This document shows positions 7,793 to 64,000 of a stretch of DNA of 64,000 bases, piece after piece. Below the pieces are notes generated by a model that saw only the letters and a list, made by a program, of their open reading frames with translations, had not been told where the DNA came from and did not search any database. The DNA comes from Deltaproteobacteria bacterium. Lineage in GTDB: Bacteria; Desulfobacterota; GWC2-55-46. The stretch lies in NCBI GenBank assembly GCA_016177845.1, contig JACOUO010000030.1, forward strand, positions 37,649-101,648. Reading direction: 5' to 3'. The stretch's first letter is position 1, and every line of letters begins with the position of its first letter. A program made the translations under genes and the position numbers.

Positions 7793-8371
7793 TTACCAGG
7801 CCCGCTTCTTTGAGTTCGACAGATCGGGCACAACCTTTATGCCTTCAGGCGTCTTCTCGAATTTCGCCTTTACTATAAATCCGCCTTCTATGCTTTCGGG
7901 CACTGACTGCGGCTTAAGGAGCTCTTCTCTCTCTTTTACAGTGCATTTTGAATCTGTACAGGCAAGCTCATATTCCCTGCCGAGCCTCAAAGCCCTTGTC
8001 GGACATGCATCTTCGCAATAACCGCAGAAAAAACATCTTACAAGGTCAACCTTCCAGACTTTAGCTACCCTGTCCGCTATACCCCTGCCTGTATCGTCTT
8101 CCATCGGAATGACTGTTATACAGCCGGTCGGGCAGGCCTTCGAACAAAGTTCGCAGGCAACGCAAAGCTCTTTGCCGCTTGCATCCCTGTTAAGGGTGTG
8201 CAGGCCTCTCCACCTTCTGTGGGGTATCCATTTCTCCTCGTCCGGGTACTTAAGAGTAATACTCTTGGAGAGATTGTAGCCGAGGGTTATGGTAAGTCCC
8301 TTCATGAAGTCCGTGAAGAGAACCCTTTTTATCATGTCCATCAAATTGAAGCTGTTTTTATTATCGCTCAT
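7793..8371 (-). CDS. nuoI: NADH-quinone oxidoreductase subunit I
   Basis: Two CxxCxxCxxxCP motifs (CVACELCSKACP, CFFCGYCEDACP). Start placed at ATG 8371, which overlaps the nuoH stop (ATGA), rather than at the track's 8431. Confidence 0.93.
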   Translation of the reverse strand: MSDNKNSFNLMDMIKRVLFTDFMKGLTITLGYNLSKSITLKYPDEEKWIPHRRWRGLHTLNRDASGKELCVACELCSKACPTGCITVIPMEDDTGRGIADRVAKVWKVDLVRCFFCGYCEDACPTRALRLGREYELACTDSKCTVKEREELLKPQSVPESIEGGFIVKAKFEKTPEGIKVVPDLSNSKKRAW

Positions 8372-49006: not shown

Positions 49007-49037
49007 AAAGGCCTTAGCTCTTTGAGCTAAGGCCTTT
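49007..49037 (-). terminator. Intrinsic terminator of tRNA-Pro
   Basis: Perfect 14-bp stem AAAGGCCTTAGCTC/GAGCTAAGGCCTTT; T-rich tail on the minus strand; 11 nt past CCA. Confidence 0.85.
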
Positions 49038-49048
49038 ACCTGATTTCA

Positions 49049-49125
49049 TGGTCGGGGCGAGAGGATTCGAACCTCCGGCCCCCGCGTCCCGAACGCGGTG
49101 CTCTACCAGACTGAGCCACGCCCCG
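49049..49125 (-). tRNA. tRNA-Pro(CGG), CCA encoded
   Basis: Reverse complement CGGGGCGTGGCTCAGTCTGGTAGAGCACCGCGTTCGGGACGCGGGGGCCGGAGGTTCGAATCCTCTCGCCCCGACCA; anticodon CGG. Confidence 0.96.
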
Positions 49126-49146
49126 ACTGTAAACAATTTCAAATAC

Positions 49147-50238
49147 TTATGGCTTTGAAAAACGCCCCTGAATTATATTTTCATGGGTTTCGCCACAATT
49201 TTGCCACACTTTTGAATAACCCAATCCAAAATCAAGCCTATCAACGGAATCCCGAAGATCTTCCTTGACCAAGTTAACATAAAGCATCGTAGTCTCGATG
49301 TCAAGATGACCAGCGAGAAACATGATCTTCTGGACAGGTACATTTTTCCTGGCAAGCTGGGTACAAAAGGTGTGCCGAAGAGAATGTATATCTGCATCAG
49401 TGATACCGGCTCTCTTATAGCACACCTTAAGGTTCCGAAGCAAATTATTTTTTCTCGGGTTCCCCTTCTCATTCGGGAAAACATACCTGCTCGTGCCTGC
49501 CAGCCTGTCCCTCTGAATAAGCAGGGCATTGTAAGCATCCTCATTCAACGGAACAGTCCGGGGCTGATAGTTCTTGGTGTGATAATTATACTCAGGCTTG
49601 TTCCTGACGTAAACCATCCTGTCCTCAAAGTCTATGTCACACCATTCCAGCATGACCAGCTCCATTTTCCGGAGGCCGATGTTGATCCCTGCCACGATAA
49701 ACGCCCACATGGTATCAGTGGTCAGAGCCAAAAGTGTCTTTATCTCGTGATCACGGAGCCAGCGGGGAAGTTTTTTGGTCTTTACCTTGTAAAACCTGAC
49801 CTCTTTTACAGGGTTCTCGACAAGGTACTTCTTAGTGACCGCATAGTTGAACATGCTCCGTATGTCAGAAAGCTCGCGATTCACCGTATTCTCCGACACC
49901 TTCGCCTTCCTGGCCGGCTTATACGCTTCAATCACCGATGGGGTGACCTTATCCAGGAATTCGATTCCAGATATATGCGCCAGGAAATGATTCATCGAAA
50001 GCTGCATCCTGGAGTATCCGTTGTGTGAAGCGTGGTCTTTGAAATACGGCAGGAACTCGCCCATGAACTCTGAAATGCTTATCCTGCTCGCGAATCCCAG
50101 GCCATGGCGTTCTTTGCGGAGCTTCATATCCGAAATCCAAGCCTCCGCAAAGCGCTTGGTGCTGAACCGCTTGGTTCTGCGAACACCGTTGATCATCACA
50201 TTTGCTTCATATGAGCCATCTTTGAATCTCACGCCCAT
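49147..50238 (-). CDS. Tyrosine recombinase / integrase
   Basis: GLRKMEL (Arg), HSLRHT (HxxR), LAGH, TMLY (Tyr); N-terminal arm and core-binding domains. Confidence 0.95.
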   Translation of the reverse strand: MGVRFKDGSYEANVMINGVRRTKRFSTKRFAEAWISDMKLRKERHGLGFASRISISEFMGEFLPYFKDHASHNGYSRMQLSMNHFLAHISGIEFLDKVTPSVIEAYKPARKAKVSENTVNRELSDIRSMFNYAVTKKYLVENPVKEVRFYKVKTKKLPRWLRDHEIKTLLALTTDTMWAFIVAGINIGLRKMELVMLEWCDIDFEDRMVYVRNKPEYNYHTKNYQPRTVPLNEDAYNALLIQRDRLAGTSRYVFPNEKGNPRKNNLLRNLKVCYKRAGITDADIHSLRHTFCTQLARKNVPVQKIMFLAGHLDIETTMLYVNLVKEDLRDSVDRLDFGLGYSKVWQNCGETHENIIQGRFSKP

Positions 50239-50495
50239 TATAGGTCTGCCTCCTTCCCTGGACGCGGCTCATTGTGCGTATTATCCGTAAATATGATAAC
50301 ACTTTCGACCGGCAAATCAAGCGCCCGAAGAATCCTTACAATAGTTCGGGTCTTGGTCTTCCGACCATTATACTTCATCAATGTCTGCCACGCCTCAAAA
50401 GATACTCCGGCCTTCTTGCAGATATCTTTAATGTCATACATCTTCTTGAGCCTTTGCAGCTCAATCTGTTTTATATCAAACTCGCGAGCTATCAT
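50238..50495 (-). CDS. Small HTH protein, possible excisionase/Cro-like
   Basis: IKDICKKAGVSFEAWQTLM helix-turn-helix; stop overlaps the integrase start (TAATG). Confidence 0.6.
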   Translation of the reverse strand: MIAREFDIKQIELQRLKKMYDIKDICKKAGVSFEAWQTLMKYNGRKTKTRTIVRILRALDLPVESVIIFTDNTHNEPRPGKEADL

Positions 50496-50597
50496 CCTTC
50501 ACCTCAGAAGACGCTTCTCTGCTTTTATCGTACCAATTTGCCCACTACACTGATGGCAGAATACCTTTTCACGCCATAGGTTTTTATTTCTTAATGA

Positions 50598-51386
50598 TTA
50601 ACCAAGTTTTTTCCATTCCCCCTTTTCGCCATCGAATATCGATTTTTGGAATCTTTGTATAGCTATGACACAGCTCATAAGTCCGTTATTTTTGAAATCC
50701 GCATGTGTGATTATGCAGATACCAAGAAGGGAACCCTCTATATATTTGGCCAGATTTGCGGCACGCTTGGCATCTCTGACAATCAAGATGATATTCATCT
50801 CCCAGCTCCTGAGTTTTGGCTCCCAATAGCTCCGCCCCTTGTTTCCATTTTCATATTCAATATGATAACCGCGCTCGATCACACGATTATCTCTGCCCTT
50901 CAATCTTATAGCTATCATGAGATCGGCTATGTACTTGTTCTTGAGGCTCTCACCCCTGTTCTTATGCCACAGCCTTATCTGCGTGTCATCGGACAAGCTG
51001 ACCAACTCGTATTGCTTCAGTCGGCTCCCTGTTTTTATTACATTTACGATTTCAGTTAGCCTGATCTCGTGGTCTACATTCGCGGGTTTTGGACAGGTCA
51101 TACGAAAGTCAGCAGGATCAAGGTTGGATCCCATGGCACACAGAAAATTCGCCCCTAAAGGGAGCAGGATGGCTGCCCGACGCCCATAGGTCTCACTGGC
51201 ATACTCGCAGGATATTATCTTGATATACTTGTTTTCTGCCAATTTTCTCATGCCGCGAAGGAAAAACTTCCAGCCTACCCGTGTGCCGTCGCGCTTAAGG
51301 AAGCAGTCAAGATTGTAGAGGATTTTAAGGGGTGTCAAGCCCGATGTTAAATGCCAAAAGACGATTATCATTCTATCATTATTCAT
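50598..51386 (-). CDS. Replication-relaxation (Replic_Relax)-like protein
   Basis: N-terminal wHTH-like part, then DHEIRL...IADLMI...HIEYENG...W.PKL pattern; recognised by eye only. Confidence 0.45.
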   Translation of the reverse strand: MNNDRMIIVFWHLTSGLTPLKILYNLDCFLKRDGTRVGWKFFLRGMRKLAENKYIKIISCEYASETYGRRAAILLPLGANFLCAMGSNLDPADFRMTCPKPANVDHEIRLTEIVNVIKTGSRLKQYELVSLSDDTQIRLWHKNRGESLKNKYIADLMIAIRLKGRDNRVIERGYHIEYENGNKGRSYWEPKLRSWEMNIILIVRDAKRAANLAKYIEGSLLGICIITHADFKNNGLMSCVIAIQRFQKSIFDGEKGEWKKLG

Positions 51387-51528
51387 ATAGCCCTCCTTTT
51401 GGATATAAGATTGTAGGGGCGAACTTATCCCTTGATAGTCTTATCGACGAACCCTGAAATAACTTTAATTAAAATGCTTATATCAACTTCTAAGATTTAT
51501 ATTTTAATAGATATTTATTGACAATTGC

Positions 51529-52284
51529 TTGACTTGGCTTATGTTTCCTGTTATGTTCTGGTTCATGGAACTTAATAAACTTTTCAGATTATCGAGAGAA
51601 GTCCAAGGGCTCAAGCAATCCGCTTTGGTAAAAAAGCTTCATATTTCACAGTCTTCGCTCTCTCAGTTCGAAAACGGGCAGTCTACTCTATCTTCGGAGT
51701 GCCTGCTCACCCTCGCCCCCCTGCTCAAAATAAATCCGGGATATCTAATGTGCGAGTCGAAAAACCCCTTCAGTAGCCCGGATCTTATAAAAATGCTTCT
51801 CACGGAAAAAATATTAGTGGGCGTGGACTATACTCCGCTTGAATATGTAGTAATGGTAAACCCCGGCGTGCAGGTCGTCTTTTTGCTCGCCACCTCGATG
51901 TTGGATAAGGCATTGGCAAAGACGGTAGTCGGGCAGTTGACCCTGGCAATCCTCGTCAGGGATCAGGACGGGAATACATTCATTTTCCGCCGAAACAGTC
52001 GGGGCTCCTATATCGTTGGAGAAGGTAATCTGCAGGCCAAGCTACAAGCCATGGAGAAGGAGGACGAAAATAAGGTTGTTACGGTCCGCTTCGAGCATAT
52101 TAGCAAGGCACTTGCCAAGAAGATTAGCGCCTGGGATGTCACTCTTACAGATGTTCAGGGTTTCTTTGAATCGAAGGTGACCAAGACCTTAACGCTGGCT
52201 GAGAACAGGGTCATCGAGCTGATGAGGGCCGAAAAACTTGATCTTGAAGCAGTTGAGCAACTCCTGAGGCATATGAAAGAATAG
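51529..52284 (+). CDS. XRE-family HTH regulator
   Basis: LKQSALVKKLHISQSSLSQFENG; divergent from the relax-xis-int unit; true start may be ATG 51565. Confidence 0.75.
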   Translation: MTWLMFPVMFWFMELNKLFRLSREVQGLKQSALVKKLHISQSSLSQFENGQSTLSSECLLTLAPLLKINPGYLMCESKNPFSSPDLIKMLLTEKILVGVDYTPLEYVVMVNPGVQVVFLLATSMLDKALAKTVVGQLTLAILVRDQDGNTFIFRRNSRGSYIVGEGNLQAKLQAMEKEDENKVVTVRFEHISKALAKKISAWDVTLTDVQGFFESKVTKTLTLAENRVIELMRAEKLDLEAVEQLLRHMKE

Positions 52285-52495
52285 AAAACTATTGAGGAGA
52301 GGCTAATTCTTTGCCGCCCCCCTAAAACATGCCGGCTCCCATGGTGGTTCCCTGTTTCCGGTATTATCAGAATGAAAGTATCATGAATAATCGAGGCTGC
52401 TTTTTCATATAGCCATAATGTGCCTTTTTGCGTTATATTCGATTCGGTCTCAAGTGATGGGGCCTGTATCCTGCGTTGACTCTGGAGGTGGACTG

Positions 52496-52798
52496 ATGGG
52501 AATGGCGAAAATAAATATTCCCTATGATGAGCTGGCGGACTTTTGCCGGAGGAACCATATCATTAAGCTTGCCCTTTTCGGCTCCGTTTTGCGTAACGAC
52601 TTCGGCCCGGAAAGCGATATCGATGTACTGGTGGAATTCGAGAGGGGGCGCGTGCCCGGCCTTATCACCCTCTCGGGAATGGAGCTCGAGTTAAGCCGGA
52701 TGTTCGGACGCAAGGTCGACCTGAGGACGCCCGAAGACCTTAGCAGGTATTTCCGGGATGAAGTTGTGAAGGCCGCAGAGGTCCAATATGCCGCGTAG
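52496..52798 (+). CDS. MNT nucleotidyltransferase antitoxin (MntA-like)
   Basis: [19 protein letters not shown] (GSx10DxD); GGAGG RBS before ATG 52496. Confidence 0.88.
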
Positions 52799-53138
52799 GG
52801 AAGATGTCATACGCCTGCACCATATGCTGGAGGCCTCAAGGGACGCACTGTCATTTATCAGCGGCAAGGCGAGACGCGACCTCGATGATAACAAGATGCT
52901 GCGCCTCTCACTTGTCAGATGCATAGAGATTATAGGTGAAGCGGCCTCAAGGCTCTCCCCTGATTGCCAGTCGGAATTCCCCGCTATTCCTTGGAAAAAT
53001 ATTATTAATATGAGGAACAGGCTCATACACGCCTATTACGATATAAATATCGATACCGTCTGGGGCACAGTCACTGAAGACCTTCCGCCTCTTATAACTG
53101 AGCTCGAAAAGATAGTCACATTAGCCGAGAAGCCTTGA
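52788..53138 (+). CDS. HEPN/DUF86 RNase toxin (HepT-like)
   Basis: IEIIGEA, IPW...MRNRLIHAY (Rx4H); overlaps the MNT gene. Confidence 0.88.
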
Positions 53139-53184
53139 GCCCTCTCGGCTTCCATTAATTGTCAAATACGCCTGAAGGAAAGAA

Positions 53185-54876
53185 GTGAAGAAGACAAAAC
53201 TTGAGCTGACCTGGATAGGCAAAGAGAACCGGCCGAGGCTTGAGCCGCGTATCCTCATCGAGGACCCGTCAAAGTCGTACCACGCGCCCTTCCGTACCGG
53301 CGGGAATGATATATTCGACAACCGCATCATTTTCGGGGACAACCTGCTGGCCCTCAAGGCCCTGGAGCAGGAGTTTGCCGGGAAGGTGAAGTGCATATAT
53401 ATAGACCCGCCGTATAATACCGGGAGCGCCTTTACGCATTACGATGATGGCGTCGAGCATTCAATATGGCTGTCTCTGATGCGCGAAAGACTTAGCATTC
53501 TCTGGCGCCTTTTAGATCGCACGAGCGGGTCTTTGTGGGTCTCTATAGATGACCGCGAAATGGCATACCTCAAAGTATTATTAGATGAGATTTGTGGTAG
53601 GCTGAATTTTATAGCTGCGAATGTCTGGCAAAAACGCTATTCACGAGAGAATCGAGAAGCCATTGGCGATGCACATGAATACCTACTCGTTTATGCTACC
53701 GACCCAGTAGCCTTTAAGGAAGGGCGGAATTTAATTCCTCTTCAAGAGAAACAGAAAAAGCAATACTCAAACCCTGATAATGACCCACGCGGGCCATGGC
53801 AGTCGGTTTCGTTACTGGCGCAAGGCTATAGGCCGAATCAGATGTATGAGATAATCGCTCCAAATGGTCGTCGCCATACACCGCCGCCTGGAAACTGCTG
53901 GAAAATCATTAATTCAGAGTACGAAAAGCTTGTAGCAGAAAACCGCGTGTATTTTGGTCGAGATGGCAATGGGGTGCCGAGGCGCAAGGAGTTTCTTAGT
54001 AAATCAAAAGGCTTAGTGCCATGGACATGGTGGCCCCACGAAGATGTTGGGCATACAGGTGAATCCAAGATAGAAGCAAATACTCTTTTCGGTGCTGATA
54101 TCAGTTTCGGGACACCAAAACCTGAGCGTCTTATGAAAAGAGTTATTGAGATTGCCACCAATCCCGGCGACCGCGTCCTCGACTCTTTCGCCGGTTCCGG
54201 CACAACCGGCGCCGTGGCGCACAAGATGGGCCGCCGCTGGATAATGGTCGAGCTGGGCGAGCACTGCCACACCCACATCATTCCCCGAATCAAGAAGGTG
54301 ATAAATGGGGAAGACAAGGGCGGTATCAGCGAGCCTGTCAATTGGAAGGGCGGCGGGGGCTTCAGGTATTACCGCATCGCGCCCTCTTTACTTGAAAAAG
54401 ACCAGTTCGGCAACTGGGTCATAAGCAAGGAATATAATCCGGCCATGCTTGCCGAGGCAATCTGCAAGCTCGAGGGCTTCACCTACGCCCCGAGCGATAC
54501 GGTCTATTGGCAGCACGGCCACTCCACTGAGAGCGACTTCATTTATGTCACGACCCAGACGCTCACCCGTGAGCAGCTCCAGAAACTCTCGGATGAGGTC
54601 GGCCCGAAAAGGAGCCTCCTTATAATGTGCGGGGCCTTCCGGGCAAAGAGCCTTGACGAGTTCCAGAACCTGACCGTAAAGAAAATACCCAAGGCCGTGC
54701 TCAATAGCTGCGAATGGGGCAAGGACGACTACAGCCTTGAAGTAGACAACCTTCCGATTAAAACCCCTAATGAAGAGACGGCCCCGGATGACCGGAAGCC
54801 GCACTCCATGAAAGAGAAGCGGACAGGAGCGCAAACCCTTTTATTTAATATGGCAGGTGAGAAAGAGGACGCGTAA
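53185..54876 (+). CDS. mod: Type III R-M methyltransferase (Mod)
   Basis: GDNL, IYIDPPYNTG, TPKPE, DSFAGSGTTG. Confidence 0.9.
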   Translation: MKKTKLELTWIGKENRPRLEPRILIEDPSKSYHAPFRTGGNDIFDNRIIFGDNLLALKALEQEFAGKVKCIYIDPPYNTGSAFTHYDDGVEHSIWLSLMRERLSILWRLLDRTSGSLWVSIDDREMAYLKVLLDEICGRLNFIAANVWQKRYSRENREAIGDAHEYLLVYATDPVAFKEGRNLIPLQEKQKKQYSNPDNDPRGPWQSVSLLAQGYRPNQMYEIIAPNGRRHTPPPGNCWKIINSEYEKLVAENRVYFGRDGNGVPRRKEFLSKSKGLVPWTWWPHEDVGHTGESKIEANTLFGADISFGTPKPERLMKRVIEIATNPGDRVLDSFAGSGTTGAVAHKMGRRWIMVELGEHCHTHIIPRIKKVINGEDKGGISEPVNWKGGGGFRYYRIAPSLLEKDQFGNWVISKEYNPAMLAEAICKLEGFTYAPSDTVYWQHGHSTESDFIYVTTQTLTREQLQKLSDEVGPKRSLLIMCGAFRAKSLDEFQNLTVKKIPKAVLNSCEWGKDDYSLEVDNLPIKTPNEETAPDDRKPHSMKEKRTGAQTLLFNMAGEKEDA

Positions 54877-57563
54877 TGAATCCCATCGTAAATGCCATTG
54901 CCAACCGCCTTAGCCTGAGGCAGCCACAGCGGAACTCTCTCGATATACTGGCCCAACTCTGCGATATGCTGCCCTTTGAGAAGAATACGGATACCATCGA
55001 AGCGCTCAAGGCGGTGCAGGCCGGATATGCCTCTGTCACTGATTTTGAACGCGACTTTCCCTCTCTATGCTTCGCCCTCGCTACCGGAGTTGGGAAGACG
55101 AGGCTCATGGGCGCGTTCATTGCCTATCTTTATAAGGCAGAAGGCCTCAGGCATTTCTTCGTCCTCGCCCCGAACCTTACCATCTACAACAAGCTCATAG
55201 CCGATTTTACTCCCAACACTCCGAAGTATGTTTTGCAGGGGATATCCGAGTTTGCGATGGAACCGCCGGAGCTAATAACGGGAGACAACTACGAGAGCGG
55301 ACGGGGAGTGCGCAAGGAAGGCAATCTGCCTGGAGTAGACTGGGAAAGGAATGTACATATAAACATTTTCAACATTTCGAAGATAAACAGCGAAGTGCGC
55401 GGCGGCAACGCGCCCCGTATAAAGCGGCTGGCAGAATACATCGGGCAGAGCTATTTTGAATACCTCGCTGGACTCAATGACCTGGTTCTCCTTATGGATG
55501 AATCTCACCGTTACCGGGCTACTGCCGGTGTTCGCGCCATTAACGAGCTGAAGCCCGTACTGGGGCTTGAGCTTACAGCCACGCCGCAGGTTGAGACTGG
55601 CGGCAAGACTACCTCATTCAAGAATGTCATTTACAGCTACCCGCTTTCAAGCGCAATGGCCGACGGCTTCGTAAAAGAACCGGCTGTGGCCACCCGCGAG
55701 AACTTCGACGCGAAGAACTATGACGCTGACGGGCTGGAGCGCCTTAAGCTCGAGGACGGCGTCCGCATCCATGAGAACACCAAGGTTGAGCTTGAGGTAT
55801 ATGCCCGTGAAAACAGCAAGCCCATCGTAAAGCCTTTCATGCTGGTCATAGCGCGAGATACAGTACACGCCAATGAGCTTGTAAAGGCGATAGAGGATGA
55901 GTCCTTCTTCGAGGGGCGGTACAAGGGCAAGGTCATCCAGGTCCATTCAAAGCAGAGCGGTCAGGAAAAAGACGAGACCGTCCAACAGCTCATTAATGTG
56001 GAGAAGCCGGAAAACCCGACCGAGATAGTCATTCATGTCAATATGCTCAAAGAAGGCTGGGATGTCACCAACCTTTATACGATTGTCCCATTGAGGGCCG
56101 CGAACTCGCAGACGCTTGTGGAACAGTCCATTGGGCGCGGCCTTCGTCTGCCATACGGCAAGCGCACCGGCGTTGGGGCGGTAGACCGGCTGACCATAGT
56201 CTCTCATGACAAGTTCCAGGAGATAGTTGATTATGCCAATAGCCCGAATTCTGTAATAAGGGGCGGGCTGAAGGTCGTCTATGTTAATGACGAGCGTTCA
56301 AAAGTATATGTGGCGGAGCCGGAGATAATCTTTCGCGTAAATCCCCCGGCTGAGGGTGGCCAGCTTCCTGCGGGCGCACCATCAAAACAGAAGGTCTTAT
56401 TTGAATCGCCCAAAGAGCAGGAGGCCGCGAAAGCAACCCTTGAGGTAATCCGAGAATACGAGAACCTGCCGCGCTCCGTTGACCTTGCCAGGCCGGAGAT
56501 ACAGAAGGAGATAATAGAGAAGGTCAGGGAGATAATCACCCCAGCTCAGAAGGAACTGGAAGGCGTAACGGAGAAGATAGAACTGGCCAAGATAGTGGCC
56601 GAGACAGTTGCCAAACATAACGAGCTTTTAATAGATATCCCCAGGATTACGCTCCAGCCCATTGGCGATGTCACGCGAGGGTACAAAGAGTTCAAGCTCG
56701 ACCTGTCGGGCGTGCGCCTCCATCCGGTGGAGAACGAGATCCTCATCGAGGAACTGCACCGGAGGGAACAGGTTCTCCTGATGAGTGGCACCGGGATTAT
56801 GCCCGAGGACAAGCCGGAAGATTACATAGTACGCGGCCTCATGGAATTTGATGATATTTGCTATGACGAGCACGCCGGGCTTCTTTACAACTTGGCAGGG
56901 CAGGTTGTCGCGCACCTCAGGACATACCTCAAGAATGAAGATGAGGTCTTAAATGTCCTTCAAAATCACAATCCGGCCCTCGTAAACCTGATACATGCCC
57001 AGATGCAGGCCCATTACGAAGATAAAGCCGAGGGCTATGAAGTACATGTAAGCAGGGGCTTCACGACCCTGAGGGCGAATAATTATTCAGCCCCGGCTGG
57101 CGAGTCAGAGCGTGACTTCCGTGTGCCTGTCGCTGATAAACAGGATATCCGCAGGATGCTCTTTGCCGGGTTCGAGAGATGCCTCTACAGGGTTCAGAAG
57201 TTCGACTCCGACTCCGAAAGGCGGTTCGCCGTCGTACTGGAAAAAGACAAGGATGTCCTAAAGTGGTTCAAGCCCGTCAAGGGAGATTTCAGGATACACT
57301 ACACGAGTGACGCAAGCTATGTGCCGGACTTTATCGTAGAGACCAGGGACAAGAAGTTTATCTGCGAGCCAAAGGCCGCTGGGGAGATGACCGACAAGGA
57401 TGTGCAGTCAAAGGCAAGGGCGGCCGTTGAATGGTGTGCCCATGCGACGGCCCACGAGCTTAAGCACGGCGGCAAGCCCTGGGCGTATCTCCTTATACCC
57501 CATGATGCTATCGCGAATAACAAAAGCCTCAAGGGACTGGCTACCTCTTTTACAGTGACGTGA
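54876..57563 (+). CDS. res: Type III R-M endonuclease/helicase (Res)
   Basis: ATGVGKT, DESH, TATP, MLKEGWDV, QSIGRGLRL, C-terminal PDF...EPK nuclease; start overlaps the mod stop. Confidence 0.9.
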   Translation: MNPIVNAIANRLSLRQPQRNSLDILAQLCDMLPFEKNTDTIEALKAVQAGYASVTDFERDFPSLCFALATGVGKTRLMGAFIAYLYKAEGLRHFFVLAPNLTIYNKLIADFTPNTPKYVLQGISEFAMEPPELITGDNYESGRGVRKEGNLPGVDWERNVHINIFNISKINSEVRGGNAPRIKRLAEYIGQSYFEYLAGLNDLVLLMDESHRYRATAGVRAINELKPVLGLELTATPQVETGGKTTSFKNVIYSYPLSSAMADGFVKEPAVATRENFDAKNYDADGLERLKLEDGVRIHENTKVELEVYARENSKPIVKPFMLVIARDTVHANELVKAIEDESFFEGRYKGKVIQVHSKQSGQEKDETVQQLINVEKPENPTEIVIHVNMLKEGWDVTNLYTIVPLRAANSQTLVEQSIGRGLRLPYGKRTGVGAVDRLTIVSHDKFQEIVDYANSPNSVIRGGLKVVYVNDERSKVYVAEPEIIFRVNPPAEGGQLPAGAPSKQKVLFESPKEQEAAKATLEVIREYENLPRSVDLARPEIQKEIIEKVREIITPAQKELEGVTEKIELAKIVAETVAKHNELLIDIPRITLQPIGDVTRGYKEFKLDLSGVRLHPVENEILIEELHRREQVLLMSGTGIMPEDKPEDYIVRGLMEFDDICYDEHAGLLYNLAGQVVAHLRTYLKNEDEVLNVLQNHNPALVNLIHAQMQAHYEDKAEGYEVHVSRGFTTLRANNYSAPAGESERDFRVPVADKQDIRRMLFAGFERCLYRVQKFDSDSERRFAVVLEKDKDVLKWFKPVKGDFRIHYTSDASYVPDFIVETRDKKFICEPKAAGEMTDKDVQSKARAAVEWCAHATAHELKHGGKPWAYLLIPHDAIANNKSLKGLATSFTVT

Positions 57564-57857
57564 AGCTGCAGCCCTTTCTATGAGTCTCAAAAGGCGGTTC
57601 CGGATGGGGTTCCAGGGGTGATGTCGTGGGAAATACTGTAATTTTTCTAAGCTCCCATTCTGCTTATGTTTTTTCATGCCTTAATTCCCAGCCATAACAT
57701 ACCTTTTTATGCTGTAAAATAAAAAACACACTTGGCTGGCTATCGCCCGCTACATCTTCAGAATAAAAGAATGACCCAGGATTTATCACAAATATCCGGG
57801 CGGCTGCTACCTATTCTCCTTTGGCAACTGCCTCAAAAAATCTGCCCCTAACGCCAA

Positions 57858-57866
57858 TGCTATAAT
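57858..57866 (+). promoter_or_regulatory. Extended -10 promoter
   Basis: TGcTATAAT, 49 nt upstream of the 27-aa ORF. Confidence 0.55.
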
Positions 57867-57915
57867 AATCCTGAGTTGAAGAGGTTTAAAAATATCTCAA
57901 TACAAGGAGGGTTTT

Positions 57916-57999
57916 ATGCAAAAGGTACTCGGGGTTATTGCGGATGTCATTACGGTATCAGTATTTATAAAAGTACTCGTGACAGCCGCAGGAATCTAA
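57916..57999 (+). CDS. 27-aa hydrophobic peptide (not in ORF track)
   Basis: MQKVLGVIADVITVSVFIKVLVTAAGI; AAGGAGG RBS. Confidence 0.6.
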   Translation: MQKVLGVIADVITVSVFIKVLVTAAGI

Positions 58000-58114
58000 A
58001 CAGTCAAAAATAGGTCAATACAACTTAATACTTATTCCCCATATCTCAGGGCTCTTTTTTAGGAAGAGATTGGTTTACCATTGAACTTATACAGGATGGA
58101 AAGGAGGGCAGCGT

Positions 58115-58249
58115 ATGAATACAGTTGCAATCTTTTTTGCGCTTATGACGGCAGTCGGGTTTATAGGTGCTTATCTTGTCCGAAGGCATGAACGCAAGGT
58201 CCGAGTTGAAAGGGCGGCACAGGCCGAAAGGCACAGCCGTCATCTCTAA
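58115..58249 (+). CDS. 44-aa single-TM peptide with charged tail (not in ORF track)
   Basis: MNTVAIFFALMTAVGFIGAYLVRRHERKVRVERAAQAERHSRHL; AAGGAGG RBS. Confidence 0.65.
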   Translation: MNTVAIFFALMTAVGFIGAYLVRRHERKVRVERAAQAERHSRHL

Positions 58250-58482
58250 ACCTTCACATGTTTACTCCTCTTTAAAACATAAGGGCCTTCGGGTGCCATT
58301 AAAGCACCTGAAGGCCTCCTCGTTTTTTTGGCAGGCTTCAAAGCTACATTCAAACAACATGGCCTTATCGCCCAACATTCTCCTAAAACAAACGCCTTTG
58401 ATGTCCTTTTCTCCAGAAACCTCTTAACAGCGGATTCCGGGATAAGGACCGGTTTTCCCCTTATAGTCGTAATAAGCCTCAT
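58246..58482 (-). CDS. Hypothetical protein
   Basis: 78-aa ORF with an ATGA overlap to the upstream ORF; no family recognised. Confidence 0.35.
   Translation of the reverse strand: MRLITTIRGKPVLIPESAVKRFLEKRTSKAFVLGECWAIRPCCLNVALKPAKKTRRPSGALMAPEGPYVLKRSKHVKV
58284..58329 (+). terminator. Intrinsic terminator after the 44-aa ORF
   Basis: 13-bp stem GGCCTTCGGGTGC/GCACCTGAAGGCC (one G-U pair) followed by T7. Confidence 0.6.
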
Positions 58483-58667
58483 ACTGACCTAATGGCGGGA
58501 CAAAGTACGGGGTCAGAGCCTTTACGCAGGCGCTCGCGCTTGAGCACCATGGACACAGAATATGCAACGTATGTCAATGGGCAATGAATTTTTACCCCTT
58601 TGGGGCTTTGAAAATTTACCCCCTGTGCCGGTTTAGTTTTCTTCCTCTTGGTTTCTGATGAGCCCAA
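58479..58667 (-). CDS. Hypothetical protein
   Basis: 62-aa basic ORF, TTG start, AAGGT upstream; no family recognised. Confidence 0.3.
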   Translation of the reverse strand: MGSSETKRKKTKPAQGVNFQSPKGVKIHCPLTYVAYSVSMVLKRERLRKGSDPVLCPAIRSV

Positions 58668-58766
58668 CTTTTACCTTTTCCTTGAGCCCAATTTAAAACG
58701 GAATATCTTCTATATTATTATTGTGTATCCGTCAATCAGGTTTGTATCAAGGTCTGCGGCGGCCTT

Positions 58767-59015
58767 TTGAAGTATTGCGTCTTTAATATTCAGGTTCCGA
58801 CCATCTTGATGGTGAATAAGGAAAATGGCAGTTACTTTCCAGTATCCACGGGTGTAGTGGCGTTAGATGATTTAGAACTCAGAATCTATAGGAGCGTGCG
58901 TCTACTTAAAGGGGAGATTCAACCTAAGGACTGGTCTGATTACGAGTTCCAAAATGGCGGAATCTTCGATACCCAGACTAGACCAAATATGCCTCAAATA
59001 GAAAGCTACCAGTAA
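58767..59015 (+). CDS. Hypothetical protein
   Basis: Open frame directly upstream of traH; start uncertain. Confidence 0.35.
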   Translation: MKYCVFNIQVPTILMVNKENGSYFPVSTGVVALDDLELRIYRSVRLLKGEIQPKDWSDYEFQNGGIFDTQTRPNMPQIESYQ

Positions 59016-59056
59016 AATCCAAAGGTCAATTTTAACCTTTATCAAAAGGACCTGAT

Positions 59057-60421
59057 ATGAACCGTAAAATCATTCTTTTATTTATTACCCTTCTGTTCTG
59101 CGTAAATACAGCTCATGCCGGCTGGGTTGACGACTGGTTCAACCAAAAAACAGAGACGGCACCAGGGTATCTTGAGGGCCAGAAAAGAGGGTATGTGACT
59201 GGAGGCTCTTTTTCCGCCAGAGTACAGAGCCACAATGACTACCTTGCAACCTTTCAGGCCCCTTCATTTAAAGGGGGGTGCGGCGGTATAGACGCATTCA
59301 TGGGAGGTTTTTCATTTTTAAATACGGACAGACTTGTCAATAAGGCCGAGGCCATGATAGCAAGCGCCCCTGCTATCGCATTCGACTTAGCCTTAAACTC
59401 ATTATCCCAGACACTGTCAATAAGCTCTAAAGATTTTAATACTATATCGGACACCTTAAATAAGCTTCAGCTGGATGACTGCAAGATGTCAAAGGCCGTT
59501 ATTACAAGAACTCTGGATTATACTGCTGGCACTCATGTAGCTCAGCAGAATGATGAAATAGATAAATTTGTCGGCATGTGGAGAGGGACAACAGACTTGG
59601 CGCAAAACATCACGGATAATCACAAAAACAACACAGCTTCTTCCAATTGGTCCGAAGCCCATTCTGCCTGTCCTGCGGAGCTTCAAAATATAGTAGGCTA
59701 TAATTCAGTACTAGAATATGTGGTAGCGCTTAACGGGATTGGAGGGTCAGATACCACTCAGCTACTACGCGGCTATATCGGAGATATTAGATTGAACTTT
59801 AGCGGGACTACCTTAAAGGCCGCTTATGAGTCTTCTTGTGCTGAAAATCTTGATTATAAGGCTATCTTAGAGGGGACTGCTTACGGTAAAGTCATGGGTG
59901 GGGGATGCGCTCAATTAGGCCCAAATACCATCAAGACTACAGTTTACAATAATATAACAGATGCCATGAACTCCATGAAAACCGGTACTCCTTCTAATCC
60001 GGCCACTACCGCTTTTTTAAATTCTATGTCAACCATCCCTTTGTATCACTATCTTCAATATATGATAGTGACAAACCAGTTTGATGCCGGTAGAAATGTG
60101 GCAACAGATTTTGTGTCCGAGGCATATGTATACAATGTATTCCAAGCCTTGATGGATACATCCTTGAGCCTGCAGAAAAATTTAAAGAAGCTTGTTAGCA
60201 GCGCTGATTCCCAAGCGCAATGCCAATTACAGGAGTTCGACGGGCTTATTGAATCACTTAATGTTTTAAATCAATTCGCACGGATTTACAAGGAAGATGC
60301 TGACAAGCAGTATAGCAGGGCAACCAGTGCGTTTATGCAGACTTTTGAGATGTCGGATAAGGTGTTGACCTTCAAAAAAATGGCCACAGACAACTTAAAG
60401 AAACTAACTTACAGTAAATAG
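59057..60421 (+). CDS. traH: F-type conjugative pilus assembly protein TraH
   Basis: Signal peptide; AGWVDDWF...GGSFSAR...PSFKGGCGGIDAFMGGFSF.N; followed by traG. Confidence 0.85.
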   Translation: MNRKIILLFITLLFCVNTAHAGWVDDWFNQKTETAPGYLEGQKRGYVTGGSFSARVQSHNDYLATFQAPSFKGGCGGIDAFMGGFSFLNTDRLVNKAEAMIASAPAIAFDLALNSLSQTLSISSKDFNTISDTLNKLQLDDCKMSKAVITRTLDYTAGTHVAQQNDEIDKFVGMWRGTTDLAQNITDNHKNNTASSNWSEAHSACPAELQNIVGYNSVLEYVVALNGIGGSDTTQLLRGYIGDIRLNFSGTTLKAAYESSCAENLDYKAILEGTAYGKVMGGGCAQLGPNTIKTTVYNNITDAMNSMKTGTPSNPATTAFLNSMSTIPLYHYLQYMIVTNQFDAGRNVATDFVSEAYVYNVFQALMDTSLSLQKNLKKLVSSADSQAQCQLQEFDGLIESLNVLNQFARIYKEDADKQYSRATSAFMQTFEMSDKVLTFKKMATDNLKKLTYSK

Positions 60422-60426
60422 GATTT

Positions 60427-63400
60427 ATGTATACTACTGAATATATAACGCATTCCGGCTTCGATATACTGAAAAACTCTCTCCAGGGGACAGCCCTTCT
60501 TTTCGGGGATAGTTCCCTGGATACGCTCTATACGGCTATCCTTATGTTGGGGGTTGTGCTGGTAGCTGTGGCGATTTCAATCAAAGTAGTATTCGACAGC
60601 AAGACCCATCCCTTGGAATGGGTTAAGCCTGCTGGTCTGGCGGTGATGCTCTATCTTTTACTGGTAGTGCCAAAAGGAACCATCAATCTCTATGACGATG
60701 TAGAAAATAAATCCATATCGATAGGCGGCCTTCCAGTGGGCCTTGTACTGATGGCAGGGCTGACAAACAACATAGAGACCGAAATCAATGACAGGATAAC
60801 CCTTGCCATGTCCCCCATTATTTCTATATCTGACATAGGGTACGGTAGGACTTTTGACCTCTATAAAAATTTGTTTAATTCGGTAGACAAGACCGACTCT
60901 ATAAGCCCTTACCATCGGATGACTGTAAAAAACTACATGAACGACTGCGTCCTGTGGGGAGTCTCATTGGGGGATATCTCGGTGGAGGATGTACAAGGCA
61001 ACGATAACTGGACCGCAATTATGAATGCGGCCTCAACTTACAGTTCGACATATACTACCTATCATGACGCAACTTCGGCTGCTAATATGGCGGGTGTAAC
61101 CAAAACCTGTACGGAGGCATGGGCTTCTATACAGGCGCAGCTATGGCCGGATGCAGCAGCCCATTGGGAGAGGGCTCTCAAAGACTATTGCTCCTCGACT
61201 GGCTTTAACTCTGCCGACCCAGCTTCATATCTTGAATGCAAGAACAAGATGGAGTCTTTTACCAAGTACATAACAAAGACCGCCGTTGATATTCCGGCTA
61301 CAGCCCTTTTAAAGCAGGCCTGGGTTTCCAATGTGATAGCCCATACTCTAAGCGAAGGGCAGTCCGTGGACGCAGCCCAGATGCAGGGGCTTCTCCAGAC
61401 CAATACCACCTTAGTCTCAAGCGGGCTGATGGCCACTGAATATATCTATATAATCAAGGCCGTCACTACAGGTATTGTATTCGGCTCTACAATAATTATG
61501 GCGCTTCTCATCTGCACCCCTTTTGCCAAGACAGCCGCGCAGTACTGGTTGGGCATGTATCTGTGGCTTCTGATGTGGGGAGTCATGGATGCGCTATTGC
61601 AGACCACCGCGATAAATTACGCCTACCAGTTTATGCAATCCAACAGGGAGTCCCTTGGCTTGGGTCTGGCGGGCATGAGCGTCTTAGGAGATAATGCCAC
61701 CAAAGCCATTGCCCTGATGGGGCATATGCGTTGGATGGGTATGATGCTTAGCGCCTCTCTTACATTCGGCGTGTTTAAGTTCGGAGGGGACGCATTCACC
61801 TCGTTTGCCGGAAGTCTTGGAAGCGTTCCCCAGGGGGCAGGTGGAGGCGCCGGCAAGGTAATGACCCCTGAAGGGGCGACATCTGCCATAAACGAACACG
61901 CCAAGAGTGTAGCCCCTACGATGGCCGTTACTAGCCGTTATGGAGTAGAAGGCATGTCCAGCGCTAATACATACGAAGCAATGAGACAGCATTCGGCAAA
62001 TAGCGCATTAGGGAGCAGTGACACAGCCAGTGAAGCTGGCCGTATACAAGGCCTCAATACTGTGGGGAACACAGTCGGTGCTGCCGGCTATTCGACACAT
62101 CAAGAAGGTAATAAGCAAATATATGGCAAGGTCAATGCTGATGGTTCAACAACCACGGGTGAAATAGACCGGTTAACAGGCGCTGGTACGGAAACAACAA
62201 CCGGCATGAAAGATGGATTGTCCTTTACCAAAACAGAAGCTGTGCAGTCTTCTAAATTTGGGGCGAATGCAAGCGCAGAAGACATACTTGACAGTAAGCA
62301 GAGTAAAGGTGGCACCTATCATGCTACAGGTACACAGAGTATGGATCTGGACGGCAAAGGGAGTAAGCCTTATCAGGTGTCGCAGGACGGCATGGTCGGG
62401 GCTGACGGCTCAACAACACCGACTACTACAAATGTCGCATCTACAGACGGGTCTAATTTCAGGGCCTCTTTAGACAGTAAGGGCAATATAGTATCTTCCA
62501 GTGACGATCAGAGGAACACTATCAGCGTCGCAGGCGGAAGCATTGTTATGGATAAAGACGGCCATGTAAGGGACGCTAACTTAAAGGGTATAAGCACCCA
62601 GTTCTCAAACAAGATAGGGACAGCCTTTACTAAGTCTGACGCCAATTCAATAGCCAAGTCAGTAGGTTGGCAGCAAATCCTGAGTAACGATACCAACGCC
62701 AGCTGGAATAAAGGGGTTGATAAAAGACATACGGATTCATTGTCTTCTACTACAAGACAGATGATGTCGGAAGGCATAACCACTAACAACTCTCTTAGCA
62801 ACGCAAGATCGAAAGAGACGGGGCAGACCCTTGCTGGGGCTATCAGTGCAGGTGTTGGCACTCCCAGTATCAGTCCTATAAAAGTAAACGGAGAGACGCG
62901 GTATCAGGTAGAAACAAAAACTAAAGACGGAACAACGCAGACATTTGAGCTCAGCGCACAGCAGAAGGAGGCCTATGACAAGATTACTGAATCTGCAGTG
63001 ACCAATGCAATAACAAAGTCTGCCTCAACCTCCGAAGGCAGGGCCAATACCTTAAGGATCGCGGAGAATGTGAATGCCACTCAAGCCAGTCAATCCCTCT
63101 CTCAGATAAGAAGGGAAGAGGCTGCTGCGGCCCAGATAACCAACAATATGGATGCAGCCGCGTTTACCGCCTATGCCGATAGCAACTTCGGAGAGATTAA
63201 AAACGATAGGGAGCGGTATACGGCAGCACTTAATCATATTGCTGAGACTTATAGCTCAGGAGATATCGATAAAGTGAGTGAGCTGAATAAACAGTTGAGC
63301 GGGCCTGTCCATTCCATGAATGACGCAGCCACTCAAGGATTAGAGGAAAAAGCTGTAAATGCGGGCGTACAGCCAAGCGAAGTTACAGCAACAGAAGTAG

Positions 63401-63777
63401 AACAGCATGCGCAGGAGGTTCATAATAAGGCAAATGAAGGAGCTGAGAAGCTGGATAAAGTCCCGGACAAGCCAGGGGACCCGCGCCAACTACCAAATAC
63501 GCCTCGCCCCGATGAAGGAAAATTTGAGGAAAAAGAAAAGGAGCAGAAGAATAAAATCAATGGCACAGATATGCCTACTACACCGTTTCATACTGTTGTG
63601 GATGCCGTAAAAAATGCAGCAATTGCCGGCGGGACGCCCGATGACCCCGCTGCGGCTCTAAAGAAACAGGCTGGGGAACTCTTTAAATTTGGAGGAATAT
63701 CAAATCCCTCTCCGGATATATCTTTAGGCGAAAACCTAAAGAAAGAATTGCAGGAAAAATCAGGGGACAAGAGGTAG
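60427..63777 (+). CDS. traG: F-type mating-pair stabilisation protein TraG
   Basis: 1116 aa; TraG_N-like multi-TM N-terminal half (GLPVGLV, NYMNDCV, YLWLLMWG) and a long Ser/Thr/Gly-rich C-terminal region. Confidence 0.8.
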   Translation: MYTTEYITHSGFDILKNSLQGTALLFGDSSLDTLYTAILMLGVVLVAVAISIKVVFDSKTHPLEWVKPAGLAVMLYLLLVVPKGTINLYDDVENKSISIGGLPVGLVLMAGLTNNIETEINDRITLAMSPIISISDIGYGRTFDLYKNLFNSVDKTDSISPYHRMTVKNYMNDCVLWGVSLGDISVEDVQGNDNWTAIMNAASTYSSTYTTYHDATSAANMAGVTKTCTEAWASIQAQLWPDAAAHWERALKDYCSSTGFNSADPASYLECKNKMESFTKYITKTAVDIPATALLKQAWVSNVIAHTLSEGQSVDAAQMQGLLQTNTTLVSSGLMATEYIYIIKAVTTGIVFGSTIIMALLICTPFAKTAAQYWLGMYLWLLMWGVMDALLQTTAINYAYQFMQSNRESLGLGLAGMSVLGDNATKAIALMGHMRWMGMMLSASLTFGVFKFGGDAFTSFAGSLGSVPQGAGGGAGKVMTPEGATSAINEHAKSVAPTMAVTSRYGVEGMSSANTYEAMRQHSANSALGSSDTASEAGRIQGLNTVGNTVGAAGYSTHQEGNKQIYGKVNADGSTTTGEIDRLTGAGTETTTGMKDGLSFTKTEAVQSSKFGANASAEDILDSKQSKGGTYHATGTQSMDLDGKGSKPYQVSQDGMVGADGSTTPTTTNVASTDGSNFRASLDSKGNIVSSSDDQRNTISVAGGSIVMDKDGHVRDANLKGISTQFSNKIGTAFTKSDANSIAKSVGWQQILSNDTNASWNKGVDKRHTDSLSSTTRQMMSEGITTNNSLSNARSKETGQTLAGAISAGVGTPSISPIKVNGETRYQVETKTKDGTTQTFELSAQQKEAYDKITESAVTNAITKSASTSEGRANTLRIAENVNATQASQSLSQIRREEAAAAQITNNMDAAAFTAYADSNFGEIKNDRERYTAALNHIAETYSSGDIDKVSELNKQLSGPVHSMNDAATQGLEEKAVNAGVQPSEVTATEVEQHAQEVHNKANEGAEKLDKVPDKPGDPRQLPNTPRPDEGKFEEKEKEQKNKINGTDMPTTPFHTVVDAVKNAAIAGGTPDDPAAALKKQAGELFKFGGISNPSPDISLGENLKKELQEKSGDKR

Positions 63778-63783
63778 TTGTAT

Positions 63784-64000
63784 ATGGAATGGCCTTTAAA
63801 ACTTGTTAATTTTTCTGAAAGCGCTGTAATCATATACGGGAAGAAAATATCCGCGAATATGCAAATATTGACTATCGACAGGATAGAAGGCAACTTGGCT
63901 TTAGTGATAGGGGATACGATATGTATCCCCTTGAACCTCTTGGATCTGACTGATGCGGCAACTTACAGGTTGTTTCTGGCAGGCGGGGGTACTGATCCTG
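63784..64000 (+). CDS. Partial ORF downstream of traG
   Basis: Frame open from ATG 63784 to the window end (MEWPLKLVNFSESAVIIYG...); no family recognised. Confidence 0.4.
   Translation, partial: MEWPLKLVNFSESAVIIYGKKISANMQILTIDRIEGNLALVIGDTICIPLNLLDLTDAATYRLFLAGGGTDP

Follow-up and report, generated by a model that had tools for sequence, protein, structure and literature searches.

Results

A Block of Conjugation Genes in a Defence Island

We analyzed a stretch of 64,000 nucleotides (hereafter the window) from a Deltaproteobacteria bacterium of the Desulfobacterota (GenBank assembly GCA_016177845.1, contig JACOUO010000030.1). The window corresponds to positions 37649-101648 of this contig, here called C12, in a 3.0-Mb draft genome of 30 contigs (G000) whose completeness was scored 100%. 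From position 49139 onward it carries the left part of an island that combines an integrase unit, defence genes, a type V-B CRISPR-Cas system and a short block of F-type conjugation (tra) genes (Table 1). Gene content was read from the listing of open reading frames (ORFs) and from family scans (Pfam, NCBIfam, PHROGs). An earlier note on this DNA had seen in it either a rearranged F-type integrative and conjugative element (ICE) with an atypical relaxase, or a mobilizable element carrying traH and traG to alter the mating pore of a helper.

Table 1. Features of the island and of its insertion site (window positions, continued along the contig beyond 64,000; L001, C3: other coordinates).
Feature	Position	Strand	Description
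Terminator hairpin of tRNA-Pro	49007-49037		Terminator scan
tRNA-Pro(CGG), intact	49049-49125	-	ARAGORN; Rfam tRNA, 65.8 bits
attL, 52-bp direct repeat	49087-49138		tRNA positions 1-39 plus 13 nt upstream; exact k-mer match
int, tyrosine recombinase	49147-50238	-	Phage_integrase (2.5e-26) and SAM-like N domains; XerC/D-like in NCBIfam
85-aa ORF, candidate excisionase/recombination directionality factor (RDF)	50238-50495	-	HTH_3 (E 0.09); PHROG transcriptional-repressor family (E 0.027)
262-aa ORF, distant Replic_Relax/MOBC-type relaxase (or replication) candidate	50598-51386	-	Remote homology, predicted structure
XRE-family helix-turn-helix (HTH) regulator	51529-52284	+	HTH_19 (4.8e-9), HTH_3 (4.4e-6); divergent from the int module
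MNT nucleotidyltransferase/HepT toxin-antitoxin pair	52418-53138	+	NTP_transf_2 (2.2e-16); HepT-like (4.1e-24)
mod, type III restriction-modification (R-M)	53185-54876	+	N6_N4_Mtase (1.7e-42)
res, type III R-M	54876-57563	+	ResIII (4.7e-21) and C-terminal endonuclease domain
Array trailer	57564-58724		Mosaic, small ORFs only; last ~160 bp AT-rich (GC 0.38)
Solitary CRISPR repeat	58725-58760	+	35/36 identical to the 29 array repeats; array orientation
traF 3' remnant (traF')	58761-59015	+	Last ~66 codons and stop, no 5' part; homology firm from 58782
traH, intact ORF	59057-60421	+	PF06122 (1.8e-60); signal-peptide-like N-terminus
traG, intact 1116-aa ORF	60427-63777	+	TraG_N (1.4e-62), residues 5-467
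orf102, 102-aa ORF	From 63778, past the window end	+	No transmembrane (TM) segment
ORF', 64 codons, cut by the first array repeat	64556-64749 (start L001 5556)	+	Good ribosome-binding site; one TM segment
CRISPR array	64750-66769		29 identical 36-nt repeats, 28 spacers of 34-37 nt
cas2	Right of array	-	Family scan
cas4-cas1 fusion	Right of array	-	Cas_Cas1 (1.4e-79)
cas12b (C2c1), 1536 aa, TTG start	~69171-73781 (L001 10171-14781)	-	C2c1 RuvC-like (1.6e-25), Nuc-II domains
AIPR C-terminal fragment (abortive infection)	~77089-77568 (L001 18089-18568)	-	Beside IS3 remnant
attR, identical 52-bp copy	C3 208891-208942		1.2 kb from C3 end; no complete tRNA there

The tra Block Lies between Two CRISPR Repeats

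The 36-nt repeat of the CRISPR array has exactly 30 copies in the genome, all in the same orientation: the 29 of the array and a solitary one, which is the sole copy of the 30 to bear a mismatch. The solitary repeat came to light when the 1.2-kb gap was compared with the genome by BLAST, and a repeat search gave one match where 100 shuffles gave an expectation of none. Homology to TraF begins 21 nt past it. The block traF'-traH-traG-orf102-ORF' (58761-64749) is thereby bracketed by two direct CRISPR repeats, and the gene at each of its ends is truncated at a repeat border. As unique sequence with a direct repeat of the same array on either side, the block takes the place of a spacer, namely the one at the trailer end of an array of 30 repeats. 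In length it is unlike a spacer (5,989 bp vs. the 34-37 nt of the other 28). The leader would be on the cas2 side, and the block hence at the trailer end, because the mismatch of the solitary repeat is of the terminal type and a tracr-like anti-repeat is found on the cas2 side. Terminal repeats are often degenerate (PMC4869251). The anti-repeat of this candidate tracrRNA (CCCTGATACACATCTGATTGATCCAC, L001 ~7970-7996) is repeat-like, inverted and located in the interval between cas2 and the array; G·U counting on it, reasoned by hand, could not settle the orientation of the array.

The presence of traH and traG with no full traF, traN, traC or coupling protein beside them, as the earlier note described it, was confirmed by the family scans. 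The absence of traF holds for the full gene and not for the gene as a whole, since its last ~66 codons sit just upstream of traH and had been counted among the tiny ORFs there (58686/58767-59015). This remnant matches positions 192-224 of the 224 in the Pfam TraF family, that is the last 33 (E 1.7e-5, above cut-off), and, against the full-length TraF of two related genomes, has 42% identity over their final ~66 residues (E 1e-14 to 1e-15). The seven codons between the solitary repeat and the start of firm homology (58761-58781) read GLLKYCV, which resembles the motif GILKYF(I/T) located some 20 residues further upstream in full-length TraF; the resemblance could reflect chance, an internal deletion or the remnant of a traF-derived spacer.

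Identity to ICEs of a sister genus is about 33%, and the best database identities of the island TraH range from 33 to 41%, with none above 41%. Some 55-residue "cluster mates" of TraH were rejected as relatives, being tRNA-antisense artefacts. The C-terminal 646 residues of TraG gave no family match. The product of orf102 was considered as an entry-exclusion-like membrane protein and rejected for its lack of a TM segment, and no homologue was found for the 64-codon ORF cut by the array.

On the other side of the solitary repeat, the trailer is a mosaic. Its segment 57831-58251, which covers small membrane-peptide ORFs, is 79% identical over 423 bp to C10:122464-122878, and segment 58572-58671 is 96% identical over 100 bp to C16:30342-30441.

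Boundaries and Insertion Site of the Island

The island is inserted at a tRNA-Pro(CGG) gene, the sole match of an Rfam scan, towards which transcription of int is directed. In two genomes of the sister genus (G032 and G023) the site is empty: the TIGR02757 gene, tRNA-Pro(CGG) and the orthologue of the MCP gene of contig C3 adjoin there, with order and orientation kept. The end of C12 and the reverse-complemented end of C3 each hold part of a single degenerate IS3 orfB; the two parts are consecutive, and nothing but odd simple-sequence runs stands between them. Because the two contig ends thus abut inside one gene, the whole element was seen; it measures about 30.4 kb, from window position 49139 to the C12 end plus 1.2 kb at the end of C3.

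The element stands upstream of the intact tRNA and supplies its 5' half, which is the mirror image of the usual restoration of a 3' end and makes it a clear case of integration rebuilding the 5' half of a tRNA gene. The displaced 5' half retains its native upstream region beside the MCP gene, and the intact gene is located just downstream of int.

The ends of C12 (115780-116000) and C3 (209930-210165) dissolve into (ACGCATACGGC)n, (GCACGCAC)n, (AGGC)n and (AAGGC)n. These repeats sit in the middle of the IS3 orfB and have the look of an artefact of assembly or sequencing; at the join, IS3 itself has a frameshift and a premature stop. Such runs in a draft of 30 contigs, together with 36-nt repeats able to confuse short-k assemblers, could be taken to mean that the contig is chimeric at the CRISPR repeats and that the tra block is elsewhere in the real chromosome. 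Against this, the solitary repeat has a unique mismatch and unique flanks, and no other array of its repeat family exists in the genome. The block meets a repeat at either end, and a mis-join would still leave it flanked by CRISPR repeats somewhere. We regard a chimeric contig as highly improbable.

An Integrase Unit of the Type Found in Mobilizable Elements

The integrase, the flanking 52-bp repeats at a defined target and the empty sites in relatives are as expected for integrative and mobilizable elements (IMEs). At its left end int, the 85-aa gene with a weak HTH signal and the 262-aa gene are co-oriented and opposite to the XRE gene, as the earlier note had observed. That note called this unit non-canonical, a view we do not share because relaxase, excisionase and integrase form the usual compact module of IMEs, in the same order (PMC5357655). 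The 85-aa protein is a candidate RDF by its position between the relaxase-like gene and int. No family match was obtained for the C-terminal ~150 residues of the XRE regulator.

Streptococcal IMEs, including IME_Class_8 with MOBC/PF13814 relaxases (PMC5357655), offer the closest layout to compare: a co-oriented relaxase-like gene, small HTH gene and integrase, no type IV secretion system (T4SS), site-specific insertion between direct repeats, and a relaxase (here a remote candidate) of the Replic_Relax/MOBC superfamily. In contrast to the present island, IME_Class_8 has serine integrases and a VirD4 coupling protein, where we found a tyrosine integrase and no coupling protein, and the 262-aa protein is too divergent for a direct PF13814 score. 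In addition, the present host is not a Firmicute, and it is the 5' half rather than the 3' half of the tRNA that is restored. We conclude that the island is IME-like, integrative and probably mobilizable, and that it would move only by excision and with the T4SS and coupling protein of a helper.

Transfer Genes Are Missing from the Island and the Genome

No tra gene besides traF'-traH-traG was found in the 30.4-kb element, where TraU, TraW, TrbC and TraL/E/K/B/V were not searched by family. Across the whole draft genome there was no match to TraC_F_IV (PF11130) or VirB4 (PF03135), for which two relatives used as controls (G013 and G032) were positive, nor any TraN, and TraH was present as a single copy. 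Past position 64,000, where the earlier note had allowed for a standard F-type tra set, the inventory gave the CRISPR-Cas system instead.

Coupling proteins were likewise not found inside the element, matches to TraG-D_C/TrwB being limited to other loci on C10 and C20. The C10 locus (G000:C10:94000-114000, L025) is an island with a P4-type integrase, an IS fragment, two Thoeris-type TIR genes, an ArdC-like gene, a type IV coupling protein (TrwB_AAD_bind, 8e-102) and a MOBF TrwC relaxase-helicase, and no T4SS. Its relaxase and coupling protein were considered as the missing half of the element under study and rejected, since this is a separate island with a P4-type integrase of its own.

Because the element was seen from end to end with no other T4SS gene, in a genome that lacks TraC, VirB4 and TraN, it is not an ICE. 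The rearranged F-type ICE proposed earlier thus finds no support, while the alternative of a mobilizable island is supported for the backbone. For annotation, the lesson is that orphan tra genes beside an integrase do not make an ICE; here it took boundaries, whole-genome inventory and junction sequences together to show an IME-like defence island.

The 262-Residue Protein Is a Distant Relaxase Candidate

The 262-aa protein gave no match in Pfam, NCBIfam or PHROGs, even with hits up to E 10 included, and a six-frame search of the whole genome with PF13814 (Replic_Relax) was negative. It has only six close homologues among 5.8 billion proteins. A profile built from these six retrieved 53 further relatives among 1.84 billion representatives, and PF13814 was matched by 21 of the 46 aligned profile-linked relatives (best E 6e-10), most of them below the 25.3-bit cut-off; the ten strongest-linked relatives scored 15-22 bits. 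Its nearest neighbours in the ESM Atlas were the clusters "Replication-relaxation family protein" and "MobC" (score 0.94), with a structure match to the former at a TM-score of 0.69 over 232 residues.

A first AlphaFold model from seven sequences was unusable (pLDDT 48), and a deeper alignment gave a model with pLDDT 94.6. In it, the first 90 residues fold into a winged helix of MarR/PadR-like type (Z 8-9), and the top Foldseek rows for the whole model were FokI and MUS81, both PD-(D/E)XK nucleases, as weak matches (E about 1e-3 to 3e-2). A sequence search of the PDB gave a marginal match to winged HTH proteins only. Of 46 sequences of the family, all have H106, D155 and K191, and at least 90% have E177.

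The PD-(D/E)XK families include Replic_Relax (PMC3424549), whose profile PF13814 is taken as MOBC by CONJscan (PMC5357655), and the MOBC prototypes, CloDF13 MobC and pAD1 TraX, are restriction-endonuclease-like relaxases (PMC12857230). The 262-aa protein is predicted to resemble these prototypes: it is small and has a winged helix at its N-terminus, its C-terminal domain, nuclease-like by prediction, has invariant acidic and lysine residues, and its nearest Atlas neighbours are MobC and replication-relaxation clusters. It differs in that it has no detectable pairwise similarity to plasmid proteins. The gene at 50598-51386 had been named Replic_Relax-like in the earlier note; this stands by remote homology (relatives, model and ESM Atlas) and not by a direct match to PF13814. 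It is thus reasonable to describe the product as a distant protein of the Replic_Relax/MOBC type with a winged helix and a predicted nuclease-like domain, which may act as a relaxase. With this family, the MOBC/Replic_Relax superfamily would reach into a lineage overlooked by current profiles.

One homologue with 50% identity is encoded in a complete genome of ~2.99 Mb. As to genomic context, a metagenome scan gave one contig of 1.6 kb, and none was obtained from two genome-contig scans, a viral scan, plasmids, 400 genomes of the phylum or 77 of the order.

Discussion

We consider it probable, though well short of certain, that the locus is a defence island of IME-like type and that a piece of some foreign conjugative element of F type was captured by its CRISPR array. 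Its backbone consists of the tyrosine integrase, the small HTH protein as putative RDF, the MOBC-like relaxase candidate and the XRE regulator, inserted in the 5' half of tRNA-Pro(CGG). The cargo of this backbone is defence (MNT/HepT, type III R-M, type V-B CRISPR-Cas and the AIPR fragment), with no mating-pore genes of its own, and the tra block would be a piece of foreign DNA that entered the array. F-type ICEs that have TraC and, side by side, traF, traH and traG occur in two genomes of the sister genus, and plausible donors therefore circulate. The tra block has the gene order of these ICEs and of the transfer regions of SXT/R391 and IncC type, clearly contiguous in the donor. It differs from the SXT/R391 and IncC-type regions in having, besides traH and traG, no more of the tra genes than the last ~66 codons of traF, and in an identity of at most 41% to any known TraH.

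Three routes into the array can be envisaged. Spacers could have recombined homologously with their targets on the invader by a double crossover or, as a variant, a single crossover could have integrated the whole element, with deletion afterwards. Recombination could instead have gone through a solitary repeat carried by the invader. Finally, an over-long fragment might have been integrated aberrantly by Cas4/Cas1-Cas2. All three are possible, and none is favoured without the donor sequence. In a review (PMC8616872), recombination between spacers and targets is described as shown for phages (Varble 2019), of which the first route would be an extension, and recombination through solitary repeat units of mobile genetic elements as proposed for viruses (Faure 2019). 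Taken as a specific event, the integration of a ~6-kb piece of the invader at a repeat by the Cas4/Cas1-Cas2 of the type V-B system, as an over-long "spacer", seems to us rather improbable. If true, it would mean that CRISPR adaptation could on rare occasions capture whole genes, with casposon-like activity in a modern adaptation module, and would represent a new route of gene acquisition.

Interrupted arrays, spacer-target recombination and solitary repeat units, as covered in PMC8616872, share with the present case the joining of foreign DNA to array repeats, and movement of DNA to or from CRISPR loci by recombination at spacers or repeats is there either shown or proposed. What differs from interrupted arrays is that the insert is 6 kb long, bears genes, has no transposase and lies exactly between two repeats. 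No description of a kilobase, gene-bearing insert in such a position was found in a limited literature search. The tra block may be a case from nature in which an array acquired kilobases of DNA from a target element. Confirmation by reads would make it a test of whether recombination between spacer and target or at repeats, or else integration by Cas1-Cas2, loads large DNA into arrays.

The truncated traF can also be read as decay in situ, in which a once-complete F-type ICE lost its tra operon down to traF'-traH-traG and came to be flanked later by CRISPR-Cas and a stray repeat. The AIPR fragment and degenerate IS3 at the far end do show erosion, and the variable defence-cargo region directly upstream of traF in related ICEs resembles the toxin-antitoxin and R-M cargo found here. 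Decay would, however, need two independent illegitimate events at repeat borders as well as a repeat copy displaced by 6 kb in direct orientation, an arrangement that recombination among array repeats alone cannot give. Moreover, the 262-aa gene is not shared by the related ICE of G013, whose integrase is only 30% identical. A single capture by the array is simpler because it dispenses with the two illegitimate events and the displaced repeat, and we hold decay to be unlikely.

Several observations nevertheless weigh against capture of a foreign fragment. The intact ORFs of traH and traG are also compatible with genes kept by selection; TraH retains 54 of 61 family-conserved positions, compared with 55 and 53 in two intact ICEs, and at 58692-58721 there is a promoter-like site directed into the block. 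As a relaxase, the 262-aa protein is a candidate, suggested by sequence and model, and convincing oriT repeats were looked for in the island and none was recognized. The orientation of the array, and with it the "oldest end", is likewise deduced. No spacer-sized remnant is recognizable at either junction, and a plain insertion into an old spacer may account for the block. The odd low-complexity contig ends in the assembly bear on the reliability of both junctions, and the case is a single instance, with no related array, island or donor in the collections searched.

Some of these observations would fit an island that keeps its own traH and traG, in the manner of SGI1, as replacements for the corresponding T4SS subunits of an F-type helper, boosting its mobilization and evading entry exclusion, with the repeats being incidental. 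In SGI1, traN, traH and traG remodel the mating pore of IncC plasmids (PMC5389848), and the present island shares with SGI1 a non-conjugative nature and F-type traH-traG, in this order, beside int/xis. The relaxase candidate and the int/xis module would suit such a role, as would the promoter-like site. Of 122 terminal branches, that of the island TraH is the longest, yet the protein has an ordinary root-to-tip length. An identity of ~33% to the ICEs of the sister genus leaves function possible, because the TraG of SGI1 substitutes for that of IncC with 37% identity (PMC5389848). On the other hand, a complete, separately promoted set of traN and traH-traG, an island family and a helper are what characterize an SGI1-like system, and here traN is absent from the genome, the genome encodes no helper T4SS, no activator gene of the SgaCD/AcaCD type was seen and the relaxase candidate is of another type. 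Nor was a second island with the same int-relaxase-traHG layout, for which the earlier note had asked, found in the collections searched. The block also opens partway through traF and closes partway through another ORF, each time at a CRISPR repeat, and looks like a random fragment rather than a selected module. The intact traH and traG, the conserved TraH, the promoter-like site and the SGI1 precedent leave some small probability to an SGI1-like role; we judge it quite unlikely, and the alteration of a helper pore suggested in the earlier note is disfavoured accordingly. On the reading that we favour, capture by the array, the tra genes would be passenger DNA with no role in transfer of the island. 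At most, the bases beside the array-side repeat might still provide a guide against the donor.

Further Observations on Defence Genes

The array, Cas12b, Cas4/Cas1 and Cas2 identify the CRISPR-Cas system as type V-B, with the tracrRNA a candidate only, and this system is carried on an integrative island. Neither the genome nor the retrieved ICE loci contained a match to its spacers, and the 36-nt repeat was absent from IMG/VR and from the 400 genomes searched. Between the cas genes and the right end of the island there are a few small genes, the AIPR fragment and the IS3 remnant; the right end is eroding.

Characterized Cas12b proteins have about 1100-1300 residues. The extra length of the present one is mostly N-terminal, before the RuvC-like domain.

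A different combination of defence genes was seen in the ICE of one sister-genus genome (L014, G032:C80:10000-29999), where a type I R-M system and a CBASS pair (SAVED-HNH effector and CD-NTase) are located directly upstream of traF-traH-traG. The variable region before traF in SXT/R391 elements is a comparable hotspot of defence cargo.

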